From IMG/VR virus record IMGVR_UViG_2706794694_000014: DNA of 41,126 nucleotides. One strand, written 5' to 3'. The number at the start of each line of letters is the position of its first letter. Position 1 is the stretch's first letter. Below the pieces are notes generated by a model. It was not told where the DNA came from and did not search any database. It saw nothing but the letters and a program-made list of their open reading frames with translations. The stretch comes from a virus. Lineage: Duplodnaviria; Heunggongvirae; Uroviricota; Caudoviricetes. Made by a program: the position numbers and the translations under genes. Of this stretch, positions 1-41,126 are shown piece by piece.

Positions 1-858
1 ATGATGGCATTATTACTGGAGCCACTGCAGTTCACCTTTATGAGTCACGCACTGCTGATTTCACTGGTAGTTTCCATACCCTGTGCGCTGCTGTCGGTCT
101 TTCTGGTCCTGAAAGGTTGGGCACTGATGGGTGACGCGATGAGTCATGCGGTTTTTCCTGGTATTGTGCTTGCCTGGATTCTGAGGTTACCTCTGGCTAC
201 AGGGGCATTCGTCGCCGGAGTATTCTGCGCGGTGGCGACGGGATACCTGAAAGACAACAGCCGAATCAAGCAAGATACAGTGATGGGGATTGTTTTTTCT
301 GGCATGTTTGCCGCAGGTCTGATCTTGTATATTGCAGTCAAACCAGACGTACATCTTGACCATATTCTTTTCGGCGACATGCTCGGGGTAACCATCGGCG
401 ATATAATCCAGACGGTGATTATTGCCGGGCTGGTTACACTTGTTATTAGCGTAAAATGGCGGGATTTTTTGCTGTTCAGCTTTGATTATCAACAGGCGCA
501 GGTAAGCGGTTTGCATACGAGATGTCTGCATTATGGGCTGCTGTGCATGGTCTCTCTGACCATTGTGGCGACGCTGAAAGCGGTAGGTATCATTCTCTCC
601 ATTTCTCTGCTCATTGCGCCTGGCGCCATTGCGGTACTCCTGACACAACGCTTTCATATTGCGCTCCTACTGGCGATTGGCATATCGGTAATAGTGTCAA
701 TGACTGGTGTCTGGTTGTCCTTTTTTATCGACAGTGCACCAGCTCCGACGATTGTCGTCTTATTCGCGGTTGTGTTCATCATGACGTTCACCGTTACCAG
801 CATCAACGCACGCACAAAGGGAAACACCCATACACAGGATTTGTCATCACCCAATTAG
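1..858 (+). CDS. sitD: ABC-3 family metal (Mn/Fe) transporter permease, SitD/MntB-like; probable prophage cargo
   Basis: 285-aa highly hydrophobic multi-TM ORF starting exactly at position 1; sequence recalled as SitD-like permease. Upstream sitABC would lie outside the window. Confidence 0.6.
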   Translation: MMALLLEPLQFTFMSHALLISLVVSIPCALLSVFLVLKGWALMGDAMSHAVFPGIVLAWILRLPLATGAFVAGVFCAVATGYLKDNSRIKQDTVMGIVFSGMFAAGLILYIAVKPDVHLDHILFGDMLGVTIGDIIQTVIIAGLVTLVISVKWRDFLLFSFDYQQAQVSGLHTRCLHYGLLCMVSLTIVATLKAVGIILSISLLIAPGAIAVLLTQRFHIALLLAIGISVIVSMTGVWLSFFIDSAPAPTIVVLFAVVFIMTFTVTSINARTKGNTHTQDLSSPN

Positions 859-1070: not shown

Positions 1071-1341
1071 TTACTCCCTGACAGGGTTCGTAGGCCACTC
1101 AATATCAGGTGCAGTTGACGTATCAACACGGTTCAGCAATACCCGATACTTTTTCCATGCTTCCAGCAACGAGATTTCTTCCTCCGTTGCAATTTCCAGA
1201 TCTGCAGCATCCTGAAGCGGCGCAATATGCTCACTGGCTACCTGCATCAGGTTGTTTTTTGTTTCTTCCGCCTCCCGGATCCGGAACAGTTTTTCTGCTT
1301 CCGTATCCTTCACCCAGGCTGTGCCGTTCCACTTCTGAAAC
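1071..1341 (-). CDS. tfa: Tail fibre assembly protein Tfa, C-terminal part (N-terminus lost in N-run)
   Basis: C-terminal ...[28 protein letters not shown] matches the lambda Tfa C-terminus. The ORF track merges it with stf only because Ns translate as X. Confidence 0.7.
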
Positions 1342-1574
1342 NNNNNNNNNNNNNNNNNNNNNNNNNNNNNNNNNNNNNNNNNNNNNNNNNNNNNNNNNNN
1401 NNNNNNNNNNNNNNNNNNNNNNNNNNNNNNNNNNNNNNNNNNNNNNNNNNNNNNNNNNNNNNNNNNNNNNNNNNNNNNNNNNNNNNNNNNNNNNNNNNNN
1501 NNNNNNNNNNNNNNNNNNNNNNNNNNNNNNNNNNNNNNNNNNNNNNNNNNNNNNNNNNNNNNNNNNNNNNNNNN
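1342..1574. other. N-run (233 nt), assembly gap at stf/tfa boundary
   Basis: Run of n characters. Confidence 0.99.
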
Positions 1575-4286
1575 CATACCTACTGAGCCTTGTACACCCC
1601 AGGTATTTTGACCTGAGCTTGTATAACCATATTGATAAGTATCTTTAAAAACACTGGGGTTAAATCGACGGCCATCTCTATGGCTGTGATTACCAGCTGC
1701 ATTCGTGCTGCCACTTAAACTATGGGTATGCGCACCAGTGTTATTCGTGGATTTAGTGCCGTAATCAAACGACGATGTGGTTTTCGTCCCCAAATCCGTA
1801 CTGGATGCGCTGGCGCTGTGGGTATGCGATTTAATGCCGTCCTGTTCCTGAGACAATACGGCCCGACCACTGGCAGGTTTGCCCTTAATCGTCCAGCCAC
1901 GCATATCAGGGATCACGCCTGACGGATAAGCCGCTGCAAGTTTCGGGTATGCAGATTTGTCAAAAGCCTGCCCCTGCATCAGGGCATAGCCAGACGGAAC
2001 GGTATCTGATGGCCACGGGATTGGTGCGCCAGGCGGATAAAACTGCTCTGATGGCGTATAGAGTGAATAAACTGTACCGTCCGTTAACCCTTCCGGCTTA
2101 TTAGCAGAATATGCTGGTGACGTATGAATCGTCACGCTGGCATTACTGGTATAATCCCATTGAATATTTACACCAGTCGCATAATTTCCGATTGCAACGT
2201 AAATATCGTAAGTATCACCAGATGTATTAACCCAGGCAAAATTTGTAAACCCTGTCAATGTGCGCTGCCATAAAGCACCAGTAATCCCCTTCGGATTACC
2301 ATTACCTGCACGTAAAACAAGTTCAGATATACCTGCCTGTTGAGGTGACCCCACGTTAAATCCAGCGCCACCAATCAACGTAATTGAAACAACAGAACTC
2401 GCCTGTGGCATGGTTACCGTTGCTAATTTGAACCAACCAGCACCACCGCTGAATGACATTGTTGTTGAGTTAAGCGTACCAATATCTTTCGGCGTCAGTG
2501 TTATATCCGCTGAAAGCGCCTTACCATTCACCTTACGGGCAGAAGGTACCCGACCATTCGCATTGTCATTAGCTGCTTTCACTGCTTTCGGTGTCGCAGC
2601 AAGCGTTTCAGATGTGCTGTTGGTTGCACTACTGAGCTGGACAATTCCTTTTTGTGCTGTCGTAGCGTCCTGTGCGGTGTATTTCCCGTTAGCCAGGTCA
2701 TACGCGGCCTTAACGGCTTTTGGCGTTGCCGCCTGTGACTCGGAAGTGCTGTTAGTCGCACTGCTGAGCTGAACTATCCCTTTCTGTGCTGTCGTTGCAT
2801 CCTGTGCGGTGTATTTCCCGTTAGCCAGGTCATACGCGGCCTTAACGGCTTTTNNNNNNNNNNNNNNNNNNNNNNNNNNNNNNNNNNNNNNNNNNNNNNN
2901 NNNNNNNNNNNNNNNNNNNNNNNNNNNNNNNNNNNNNNNNNNNNNNNNNNNNNNNNNNNNNNNNNNNNNNNNNNNNNNNNNNNNNNNNNNNNNNNNNNNN
3001 NNNNNNNNNNNNNNNNNNNNNNNNNNNNNNNNNNNNNNNNNNNNNNNNNNNNNNNNNNNNNNNNNNNNNNNTGACGCCTGTCTGGTCGCCTCATCTTTTG
3101 AAGCAGACGCAGATGATGCCGATGACGCCGCCGAACTGGCGGACGATGCGGCAGCCGTTTTTGAGGATTCTGCGCTGGTTTCCGACGCTTTCGCGTTCGT
3201 TTCGGATGTCTTCGCTGCGGAAGCAGACCTCGCTGCTGCGCTGGCCTGTTCAGTGGCTTCGCCAGCCTTCGTTGTGGCTGTTGAAGCGGATGATGCGGCG
3301 CTTTCTGCCGATTTTCCGGCGGCGGTGGCACTGACTGCTGCCTCCTCTGCCTTAATGGACGCCTCACGGGCCGATGATGCAGCTGCTGTCTCAGAGTCTG
3401 CCGCAGCTGAGGCGCTCTGTTCCGCTGCCGTTTCAGAAGACTTAGCATTCGTCTCGGACGTTTTTGCCGCCTTCACGGAATTTCCTGCCGCCGTTGCCGA
3501 GGAGGCTGCACTGCTGGCGCTTGTGGAGGCGTTCGTTTCTGATGATTTTGCCGCCTCTTTGGAGGCCGCCGCATCTCTGGCTGAAGTGGCGGCTTCTGAC
3601 GCTTTCGTTGTCGCAGTGGATGCAGAAGTGGCTGCTGATTTTTGTGACGCTGCAGCATTCGTTTCTGACGTTTTCGCCGCACCGGCACTGGTGGCCGCCG
3701 CGCTTTTTGAGGACTCTGCAGCGGCAGCACTTTTTGATGCTTCAGTGGCCTTTGTTGATGCCGTTCCTGCGCTGGAAGACGCCTCCTGAGCCGAAGTCGC
3801 GGCCTGTCCGGCTGACGTGCTGGCTGCACGCGCTGAGCCTGCAGCATCAGTCGCATGGGTTGCCGCCTCACGGGCAGATGTGCCGGCATCACTGGCTGAC
3901 TTCTTCGCGGCTGCCGTGTTCTGTGCCACCGCGGACGCGTTACGCGCCACCTCTTCCACCATCAGTTCAAAACGGCGCAGAGCCTCCGGACGGGCATCAT
4001 CCTCCGTCATGGCACCGAGAAAATCATTCAGCGTACCGGGTCGGGAATCTTCATACACAGTGATGGTCCCGGCATGTGACGGCGGGAATCCTTCCACCAA
4101 CAGAATAACGCTGTACTGACCGTACTCAACGTCCATGCTGTAACGCCCGGCTTCATCCGGATTTTCTGAGGCCAGCGTGTTCACCACCACCGTGGTGCTG
4201 TTACGTTTTGCTTTCAGCTGGATTGTGCAGTTCTGTACCGGTTTTCCTGTGCCGTCTTTCAGTACACCTGAAATCTTTACTGCCAT
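1575..4286 (-). CDS. stf: Side tail fibre protein (lambda Stf homologue); C-terminus lost in gap, internal gap 2854-3071
   Basis: N-terminus [62 protein letters not shown] is near-identical to lambda Stf; long Ala/Ser/Thr-rich shaft; ATG at 4286 preceded by GGGGTG (track start 4292 is a GTG two codons upstream). Confidence 0.85.
2590..2853. repeat. Intragenic tandem repeat in stf (unit ~132 bp, at least 2 copies, continuing into gap)
   Basis: gtatttcccgttagccaggtcatacgcggccttaacggctttt occurs at ~2681-2723 and ~2811-2853; encoded peptide [41 protein letters not shown] repeated. Confidence 0.8.
2854..3071. other. N-run (218 nt) inside stf, adjacent to 132-bp tandem repeats
   Basis: Run of n characters immediately after a repeated 132-bp unit. 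Confidence 0.99.
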
Positions 4287-4295
4287 ATTCACCCC

Positions 4296-39595: not shown

Positions 39596-39877
39596 ATGAA
39601 TACCTTGTTTTTACTGATGGCTGAATTCAATACCCCAAACATTGAACTCTCAGCAGTTAGTCAAAAATACTTTGGTATGAGTCCAGCCACAGCAGAAGCA
39701 AAAGCAAACGCTTGTAAGTTGCCTGTACCTACATATCGCATCGGTACATCACAAAAAGCAAAACGTTGCATCAATATTCAGGATCTTGCGGAATACATAG
39801 ACAAAAGACGAGAAGAAGGACGTATCGAGTGGGAACAGGTCAGAACAGGCAAACAGAAGGGCAAAGAACATCACTAA
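39596..39877 (+). CDS. PrtN-family (pyocin-activator/excisionase-like) DNA-binding protein
   Basis: MNTLFLLMAEFNTPNIELSAVSQKYFGMSPATAEAKANACKLPVPTYRIGTSQKAKRCINIQDLAEYID matches the PrtN-family pattern as recalled; GGAGA RBS. Confidence 0.6.
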   Translation: MNTLFLLMAEFNTPNIELSAVSQKYFGMSPATAEAKANACKLPVPTYRIGTSQKAKRCINIQDLAEYIDKRREEGRIEWEQVRTGKQKGKEHH

Positions 39878-39878
39878 A

Positions 39879-39906
39879 GAAAAAACCCGCCTAAAGGCGG
39901 GTTTTC
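39879..39906. terminator. Bidirectional rho-independent terminator between convergent operons
   Basis: aaaaaacccgcc-taaa-ggcgggtttt. Confidence 0.8.
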
Positions 39907-39923: not shown

Positions 39924-40097
39924 ATCATGCTGCTTTGCGACGACGAAGCTTACCCTGCTGCTCTTTACCAGAGACAGTAGCGTGAGTGAACGCATTAGGA
40001 GCAGCCTTCATCAGAACTTCAACAGCAGCACCCATACCTGCGAATGCTTTCATTGTGTCGAACTTAACCTGTGGCTTGGTTGCTTTTTGATCTTCCA
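39924..40097 (-). CDS. Small hypothetical protein (57 aa), last gene of the Panacea operon
   Basis: ATG with GGAG RBS ~8 nt upstream; MEDQKATKPQVKFDTMKAFAGMGAAVEVLMKAAPNAFTHATVSGKEQQGKLRRRKAA; ends just before the bidirectional terminator; below the ORF-track cutoff. Confidence 0.4.
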
Positions 40098-40137
40098 TAG
40101 AAAACTCCAGAAGCTATACCGAAACAATTCCTGTTGT

Positions 40138-40557
40138 TTACTCATCATCAATAGATGATACGCAATATTTATTTTTAAATTTAAGGTTCTTTGGCGTAAC
40201 TTCATCAGATATATCAAAACCGTCCAGAATTCTATTGAATGTAGCTTCTGGCATATCATCATGAACGGAAATCTCACCCGATCGCTGCTTTCTAACCATG
40301 TTATCCACTCGCCAAATTATAGCTTCAGCGTAAACAACATAACTTGGATGCTTGATAAAGCGATGATCACCAGAATTCAAGACGCAAGACGGATCGTGGG
40401 GGACACCATCCTTGATACTAGAAATATTAACAACTAAAACACAATAACAATCGTTAACGGGGTAATAAACAGGATCATTACAAATCACATGAAGATGATT
40501 GCATGGCCCAGTTGGGGCAAGCACAGTTCCTTTCCTGTATGGCTGATAATCCGTCAT
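40138..40557 (-). CDS. Unrecognised Cys/His-rich protein (139 aa), candidate toxin/effector partner of the Panacea-domain protein
   Basis: 4-bp overlap with the upstream Panacea gene; GPCNHLHVICNDPVYYPVNDCYCV...HDPSCVLNSGDHRF Cys/His cluster; no family recognised. Confidence 0.6.
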   Translation of the reverse strand: MTDYQPYRKGTVLAPTGPCNHLHVICNDPVYYPVNDCYCVLVVNISSIKDGVPHDPSCVLNSGDHRFIKHPSYVVYAEAIIWRVDNMVRKQRSGEISVHDDMPEATFNRILDGFDISDEVTPKNLKFKNKYCVSSIDDE

Positions 40558-41126
40558 GATAATTGCAAAGAAAATTCCTTAAGTTTCTGAGATTCTTCCA
40601 TTTTGCCAATTATACGATTAGCCTCATCCTCGCTTTTACCCTCACTGATCAGCATTTCTTTCAGGTCTATAGGCTTACGAGAATTGCCAGGATTGTGCCA
40701 CTCTGGACAAACGCTTTCTAAATGCGTCATGTTTGCGAGATCAAATCGGTTCATATGCCCATACAGAGAATAGATTTCATCTAAAATCCGGATATCTGCA
40801 CGGCTCAACTCATCAAAGACCTCGTCTGCATCCATTTCCCTCGGATCTGAACGCAACAACACATCATGCCCGTTCGTCTCTATCAGGTTGTACCAGTAGT
40901 CACCAATACCTTCAGCCTTACCACGAATCAAGTTCAGCGTATTCGACATGACTGGACCAAATTTCATAGAGTAAAGGCTATCTTCGCCGATCATCCTGCC
41001 ATGCTTCAAAATCGACTTGCGGTTAGACAGATAGAGCAGCTTCATCAATTTCAGATATGCCATGCGCCCACCTCGCTTAAGAAGTAGGTATGCAGCCATT
41101 TGAGCTACTTTTTCTTCGCAAAACAT
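40554..41126 (-). CDS. Panacea (DUF4065) domain protein, putative PanA-type antitoxin
   Basis: MAYLKLMKLLYLSNRKSILKHGRMIGEDSLYSMKFGPVMSN matches the DUF4065 signature (K-L-x-K-L-L-Y ... GPV) as recalled; ATG is the last codon of the window. Confidence 0.65.
   Translation of the reverse strand: MFCEEKVAQMAAYLLLKRGGRMAYLKLMKLLYLSNRKSILKHGRMIGEDSLYSMKFGPVMSNTLNLIRGKAEGIGDYWYNLIETNGHDVLLRSDPREMDADEVFDELSRADIRILDEIYSLYGHMNRFDLANMTHLESVCPEWHNPGNSRKPIDLKEMLISEGKSEDEANRIIGKMEESQKLKEFSLQLS

Follow-up and report, generated by a model that had tools for sequence, protein, structure and literature searches.

The closest described relatives of the locus analysed here are the PanAT toxin-antitoxin pairs. 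Kurata et al. (2022) surveyed the neighbourhoods of genes encoding DUF4065, named the domain Panacea, and grouped its partners in 88 clusters (PMC8832971). The type member of their cluster T6 is a pair from Pseudomonas moraviensis, PanA WP_083354365.1 and PanT WP_083201923.1. This PanT is toxic in E. coli and PanA rescues growth; the toxin was pulled down and co-purified with PanA as a direct complex, and in labelling assays it specifically inhibited methionine incorporation, that is, it blocked translation (PMC8832971). By HHpred it is EndoA/PemK/MazF-like (PMC8832971). Not every predicted PanT is toxic: 8 of 25 were non-toxic in E. coli, including that of a T1 ("mRNase-like") pair from an E. 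coli prophage (PMC8832971). Among the antitoxins, the PanA of C. doosanense carries a Phd-C extension (PMC10440598).

Two further groups of systems share part of this architecture. MazEF and PemIK (Kid-Kis) are two-gene operons in which the antitoxin comes first, and the type VI system SocAB of Caulobacter has, like the pair described below, a Panacea-domain antitoxin. Unlike what we propose for that pair, SocA serves as an adaptor of ClpXP, and SocB acts by blocking the replication clamp.

Here we analyse two genes at one end of a phage-derived stretch of 41,126 nucleotides (IMG/VR record IMGVR_UViG_2706794694_000014), the whole of which is called the window in what follows. An earlier note made from its sequence had proposed that these genes, together with a small third one, form a novel toxin-antitoxin or defence module. 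We consider it likely that the two, panA and panT, are a type II PanAT module of the published T6 class, which a dusA-integrating lambdoid E. coli prophage carries at its attachment-site end as accessory cargo. The pair is thus a predicted representative, from an E. coli prophage, of a PanAT class that is already known, and not a new kind of system.

Results

The Panacea Gene Overlaps the Gene for a Putative Toxin

The features of the locus are collected in Table 1. The open reading frames of the earlier note and the 4-bp overlap of its first two genes were borne out by the sequence, in which the panA stop and the panT start share an ATGA. The DUF4065/Panacea signature it had seen in the first gene was likewise confirmed by an HMM match, PanA aligning with Pfam PF13274 (SocA_Panacea) over residues 27-137 with an E-value of 1.8e-18 and 67.9 bits (cut-off 25.7). 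RefSeq labels the protein (WP_000458583.1) "Panacea domain-containing protein". The panA ATG is the final triplet of the window. The annotations of phages SKA5 and Lys8385Vzw and those of RefSeq E. coli genomes use this start too, for a product of 190 aa.

Table 1. Features at the panA end of the window.
Feature	Coordinates	Strand	Description and evidence
Excisionase gene, PrtN-type	39596..39877	+	PF11112, E 3e-23; phrog_1300 "excisionase"
Intrinsic terminator	39881..39906	both	11-bp stem, -19.3 kcal/mol, z -3.8; serves the minus-strand genes as well as the excisionase gene convergent with them
orf57	39925..40098	-	57 aa; phrog_2741 (unknown function); GGAG 6 nt before ATG
panT	40138..40557	-	139-aa putative toxin, PanT cluster T6; modelled MazF/Kid/CcdB-like beta-barrel plus three helices; H21, D55, C58 and H65 conserved
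panA stop/panT start overlap (ATGA)	40554..40557	-	Sequence; -4 or -1 overlap also in relatives
panA	40554..41126	-	190-aa predicted antitoxin; Pfam PF13274; phrog_1281; RefSeq WP_000458583.1; collinear alignment of 27 partner PanAs

The Panacea/DUF4065 core, at approximately residues 27-137, is followed by a C-terminal extension of about 50 residues, which is conserved and collinear in all of the PanAs that accompany the 139-aa toxin family (27 partner PanAs aligned). The SocA equivalog of NCBIfam, NF047745, was not matched by the window PanA (13.5 bits, against a cut-off of 190). At their very C-termini (window 40554..40580, minus strand; loci L004-L012 and L022-L025) the PanAs have a conserved tail, ...(K/Q)(E/K/A)FSxxL(S/A) or ...LLAELA. 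This tail could be a toxin-contact or protease-recognition element; it does not act as a ribosome-binding site of panT.

The panT start is not preceded by a Shine-Dalgarno sequence at a suitable distance, and its ATGA overlap with panA implies translational coupling. Overlaps of -4 or -1 recur in the copies from Kosakonia, Pluralibacter, Brenneria, Pantoea, and Chimaeribacter. The PGAP/RefSeq annotation starts panT at an internal GTG, which gives a protein of 128 aa and a 29-nt gap to panA (L003 4579-4965). We favour the ATG start and the 139-aa product because the N-terminal residues 5-11 are conserved (PYRKG; G10 is invariant among close relatives) and so are the ATGA/TAATG junctions. A construct made from the RefSeq 128-aa protein would miss conserved residues, G10 included.

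Searches of Pfam, NCBIfam, and PADLOC with the 139-aa protein returned nothing meaningful, while PHROGs assigns it to phrog_19071 (function unknown). The earlier statement that it matches no recognised family therefore holds for the first three collections, but the protein does belong to a PHROGs family and, as described below, to a published PanT cluster. With a word-indexed search we retrieved 62 clusters of homologues, a number that rose to 271 with a profile; no Pfam domain was detected in any of them. An HMM was also run exhaustively against 1.84 billion representatives. At E<=1e-3 it matched 2,663 clusters, counted as representative clusters at a 50% identity level, and at E<=1e-10 it matched 896. 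The best 150 of the 2,663 matches are all single proteins of 78-187 aa.

The Pairing of panA and panT Is Conserved

Among 28 loci from species-representative genomes, 26 encode a PanA homologue directly upstream of that of PanT, ending only a few bases from the toxin start; the remaining two are truncated by the end of the contig. These 28 loci come from gamma-, alpha-, and beta-proteobacteria (Enterobacterales, Methylococcales, Sutterella, Sphingomonadales, Rhizobiales, and Rhodobacterales). The pair is also found in four further phages, among them YeP1 of Yersinia, where it adjoins the integrase, ST13-OXA48phi12.5 of Klebsiella, and the P2-like phage Sirocco of Pseudomonas; the temperate phages that carry it have Yersinia, Klebsiella, Pseudomonas, and Vibrio as hosts. 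For distant members of the toxin family (27-38% identical), a SocA_Panacea gene lies directly upstream in all five informative metagenome contigs, with a 4-nt overlap in four of the five. The partner PanAs of five other loci scored 74-86 bits against PF13274. Linkage of the toxin family to Panacea was found at every locus with readable upstream DNA.

Compared with the Kosakonia and Pluralibacter copies, panA and panT have dN values of approximately 0.09-0.11 with synonymous sites saturated, which indicates strong purifying selection on both genes. Of 5,426 complete E. coli genomes, 193 (~3.6%) have the full cassette.

The Window PanT Belongs to Cluster T6

The accessible T6 entries of Dataset S1 include Pantoea septica LMG 5345, with the antitoxin first and a spacing of -4, and "Yersiniaceae bacterium 2016Iso4", with a spacing of -1 (PMC8832971). 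We found homologues 55-56% identical to the window PanT in P. septica LMG 5345 (L009) and in 2016-Iso4 (L008), and their junctions are -4 and -1, exactly as these entries give for the two strains. It is on this match of strain, spacing, and name, a strong though indirect link, that the window PanT is placed in T6. The window accessions themselves, WP_000458583 and WP_014640052, are not among the accessible entries of Dataset S1, which comes from a survey of one genome per species. The toxin of phage Sirocco is 48% identical to the window PanT. The P. moraviensis PanA begins with MIFSEQKVAQ (PMC8832971), that of Sirocco with VIFSEQKVAQ, and that of the window with MFCEEKVAQ.

The window pair resembles the P. 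moraviensis pair in several respects. In both, the Panacea antitoxin is encoded upstream and has no N-terminal domain, the toxin gene overlaps panA by 1-4 nt, the toxin fold is MazF/PemK-like, and the N-terminal motif of PanA is conserved. What sets the window copy apart is that it resides on a lambdoid prophage of E. coli, beside the attachment site in dusA. With the domain match, the conserved pairing, and the T6 membership, there is good support for reading the two genes as a toxin-antitoxin pair whose antitoxin is the Panacea protein. The partner, on the other hand, is not the novel protein it had been taken for, since the 139-aa protein has a MazF-type fold in our model and belongs to a published cluster with a validated member (PMC8832971).

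The Modelled Fold Is That of MazF but the Conserved Residues Differ

The AlphaFold2 model of PanT, built on a 26-sequence alignment, is a confident one, with a pLDDT of 89.9 and a pTM of 0.84. In this model a five-stranded barrel (residues 10-83) is followed by three helices. The MazF-like fold of the model was supported by two independent structure searches, and its beta-barrel is of the MazF/CcdB type. At the level of sequence, the PanT family profile aligned with E. coli MazF by hhalign with a probability of 0.1, a profile search of all PDB sequences with the family gave chance matches only and no MazF, and PF02452 (PemK_toxin) had no match in 33 diverse members (the window protein at E<=1 and 32 relatives at E<=0.1). 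A sequence-level link between PanT and MazF was dropped after these three results, the relationship being visible by fold comparison only. PanT, as modelled, has a MazF-type fold, yet it is a separate sequence family.

The catalytic residues of MazF are an Arg at the start of strand 2 and a Thr or Ser at the end of strand 3. Throughout some 2,600 representative clusters of the PanT family, H21, D55, C58, and H65 show little or no variation. Judged from motif position, H21 would stand at the place of the catalytic Arg and the conserved S/T47 at that of the Thr, and D55, C58, and H65 are in an insertion of approximately 14 residues after the strand that carries S/T47. The Cys/His cluster remarked on in the earlier note is thus real in part: H21, C58, and H65 (with D55) are kept family-wide, but C19, C37, and C39 are not conserved, and H23 and C26 are conserved among closer relatives only and not across the wide family. 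The conserved residues could provide acid-base catalysis by His, a metal site, or a Cys-His-Asp triad. Because this His/Asp/Cys/His set differs from the Arg and Thr of MazF, RNase chemistry is an assumption for PanT.

The comparison with MazEF and PemIK can now be drawn more fully. The toxin fold, the two-gene operon, and the antitoxin-first order are common to them and the window pair, and the translation target would be as well. However, the toxins have no detectable sequence similarity, and the antitoxin of MazEF is of the MazE/AbrB type while that of the window is a Panacea protein. Moreover, the window PanT has His21, Asp55, Cys58, and His65 conserved instead of Arg and Thr, and it has an extra helical C-terminal part as well as the insertion with D55 and C58.

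orf57 Is Outside the Conserved Module

Between the three minus-strand reading frames we found neither a terminator nor a promoter better than chance. Promoter scans gave scores no better than those of shuffled sequence, with none visible inside the window; as the window ends at the panA ATG, any promoter would be outside it. When the 420 bp preceding panA in strain A14 were searched for an autoregulatory operator, no inverted repeats were found. A weak TTGACC-17-TAAACT match lies approximately 125 nt upstream of panA, outside the window. Downstream, the minus-strand genes end at a terminator whose 11-bp stem is followed by UUUUUUCUUU. On the plus strand the fold is equal but has a run of 4 U only, so the terminator, described earlier as strong in both directions, is so on the minus strand but weaker in the plus-strand direction.

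orf57 is probably co-transcribed with panAT. It was found only in E. coli phages of the window type, its dN/dS comparison rests on 1-2 differences only, and PADLOC and NCBIfam gave nothing useful for it. mEp460 and O157:H7 prophages have orf57 together with the excisionase gene but lack PanAT. Conversely, orf57 is missing beside PanAT in Kosakonia and Pluralibacter, where PanAT directly adjoins the excisionase gene, and in all of the more distant loci. Because each occurs without the other, orf57 lies outside the conserved PanAT module. The "three-gene" unit of the earlier note is therefore correct as a description of three reading frames with no terminator between them, orf57 having a GGAG of its own, but not as a three-gene functional module.

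The Pair Occupies a Variable Slot Next to dusA

The excisionase gene is convergent to panAT; it is the last gene of the early-left operon and forms the inner edge of a cargo slot. Both the convergence of the minus-strand genes with the early-left operon and their variable cargo position, as first suggested, were upheld, sibling prophages carrying other cassettes in the slot. Of the 5,426 complete E. coli genomes, 550 have the excisionase gene together with orf57. Where a genome carries an identical copy of the cassette, that copy is the last element before the prophage/host junction in dusA, and a leftover 5' fragment of the host dusA lies approximately 250 bp upstream of panA on the same strand (L003 5568-5925 in A14; L041 5068-5425 in APEC37). 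The host dusA promoter may transcribe the cassette in lysogens.

In mEp460, O157:H7, and other genomes, PanAT is replaced by a 177-aa protein of unknown family. This protein (WP_000956557.1, gp23 of mEp460) is encoded beside orf57 (L035 3361-4264 in mEp460; L036 2830-3733 in O157:H7 DEC4E) and had no match in Pfam or PADLOC. The slot of the ZY22049 prophage (L039 2803-3847) holds a different PanAT, in which PanA is WP_000287252.1 and a gap of 22 nt separates it from the toxin. That PanA was validated as the antitoxin of a membrane-targeting T3 toxin by Kurata et al. 2022 (PMC8832971). The "Esc. col." pair to which it belongs shares with the window pair a Panacea antitoxin and the same excisionase-dusA slot, but its toxin is a small membrane protein and its genes are separated by the gap rather than overlapping. 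The two PanAs are only 20% identical, which argues that whole cassettes were exchanged and not merely partners swapped.

One other gene of this region has an unusual composition. The window segment 38726..39559 (plus strand), between yfdQ and the excisionase gene, is an AT-rich reading frame (GC 28-32%, against ~50% nearby) for a protein of 277 aa (260 aa in RefSeq, WP_047654657.1) assigned to phrog_14996. It has no match in Pfam, NCBIfam, or PADLOC and looks like separately acquired cargo.

Discussion

The P. moraviensis pair allows us to propose how the window pair would work. panA and panT would be translated in a coupled fashion, and PanA would bind PanT directly and hold it inactive. Free PanT, with its divergent MazF fold, would shut down protein synthesis and thereby arrest growth, and cleavage of RNA at a site equivalent to the MazF active centre is the most likely means. 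A candidate for the neutralising part of PanA is its conserved C-terminal extension, by analogy with the C. doosanense PanA. For the lysogen, the module may provide superinfection defence by abortive infection, or it may stabilise the prophage. While toxicity and neutralisation of the window pair are inferred from P. moraviensis, its domain identity, modelled fold, conserved pairing, T6 family identity, and location in a variable slot are established here.

The first of these roles can be put more strongly. PanAT could be a dedicated anti-phage abortive-infection system, in which the Panacea domain senses phage and frees the MazF-fold effector, protecting the lysogen population. The cassette sits in the cargo slot at the attachment site, where sibling prophages have alternative cassettes, and the related prophage of strain A14 bears a DRT-type RT_UG17 and SLATT at its other end. 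What is more, the pair recurs in temperate phages of several host genera, and a sensory role of Panacea is favoured by the NetFlax authors (PMC10440598). However, PADLOC-DB v2 had no match at E<=1 for PanA, PanT, or orf57, no report of phage defence was found in the PanAT literature surveyed, and location cannot separate defence from addiction or stabilisation. We regard a dedicated defence system as a tentative reading, somewhat doubtful on present evidence; it is compatible with, and not exclusive of, a T6 PanAT module carried as accessory cargo.

For the T6 module itself, mechanistic interest centres on the His/Asp/Cys/His site. One proposal would be that T6 PanT keeps the MazF scaffold with its active-site chemistry replaced, by a metal site or a Cys-His-Asp triad located, as judged from topology, where MazF has its Arg/Thr centre, and blocks translation by a reaction undescribed for the fold; in the window prophage it would possibly be released by a Panacea sensor on superinfection and possibly be expressed from the host dusA promoter. 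Taken as a whole, this proposal strikes us as unlikely.

It also seems decidedly unlikely that panAT is non-toxic in E. coli and has some other role for the phage. The non-toxic PanTs, which include that of the T1 pair of Salmonella phage Emek as well as the E. coli prophage T1 toxin, offer a precedent, but the T6 member that was tested in E. coli, that of P. moraviensis, proved toxic. The strong purifying selection, together with Panacea linkage wherever upstream DNA is readable, also argues against such an explanation. That PanT, whose modelled barrel is of a type common to MazF and CcdB, poisons DNA gyrase in the manner of CcdB or has some other target that is not RNA, and is no RNase, we consider improbable. 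Finally, a SocAB-like type VI mechanism, in which PanA is a ClpXP adaptor promoting toxin degradation without sequestration, could draw on the Panacea domain common to SocA and the window PanA and on C-termini of T6-partnered PanAs (...FSxxL(A/S)) loosely reminiscent of protease tags, but it is very hard to sustain given the unmatched SocA equivalog, the assignment of SocB to another PanT cluster, T10, and the stable complex that the P. moraviensis T6 pair gives in pull-downs (PMC8832971).

Two genes that about 3.6% of complete E. coli genomes and several temperate phages carry under the labels "hypothetical" or "Panacea domain-containing" gain a name and a likely activity from the assignment to T6, and the start codon given to panT by automatic annotation is corrected. 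As the kind of system is already published, the remaining interest is in the chemistry of a large toxin family, with 2,663 representative clusters, Panacea linkage, no Pfam model, and a conserved His/Asp/Cys/His site, and in the single dusA-adjacent prophage slot that swaps whole PanAT cassettes of differing toxin classes. Such a slot is a convenient natural system for asking how PanAT benefits the lysogen.

Both ends of the window coincide with start codons. At the left end, the first triplet is the ATG start of a gene for a transporter permease of the ABC-3 family (1..858, plus strand; PF00950, E 2.5e-76), which adjoins the tail-fibre gene of the prophage (1071..4292, minus strand). In the dusA prophage of strain A14, the other end (L040 41271-43170) encodes an RT_UG17 reverse transcriptase (PADLOC, E 1e-158) and an RT-associated SLATT protein (E 1.5e-56), a DRT-type defence pair between the tail-fibre assembly gene and dinI/int. 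The presence of this RT and SLATT at the left end of the window was considered and rejected, as the translation did not fit and the permease gene is there instead, beside the tail fibre. As its left end differs from that of A14, the window prophage is a mosaic relative of the A14 prophage and not the same element.
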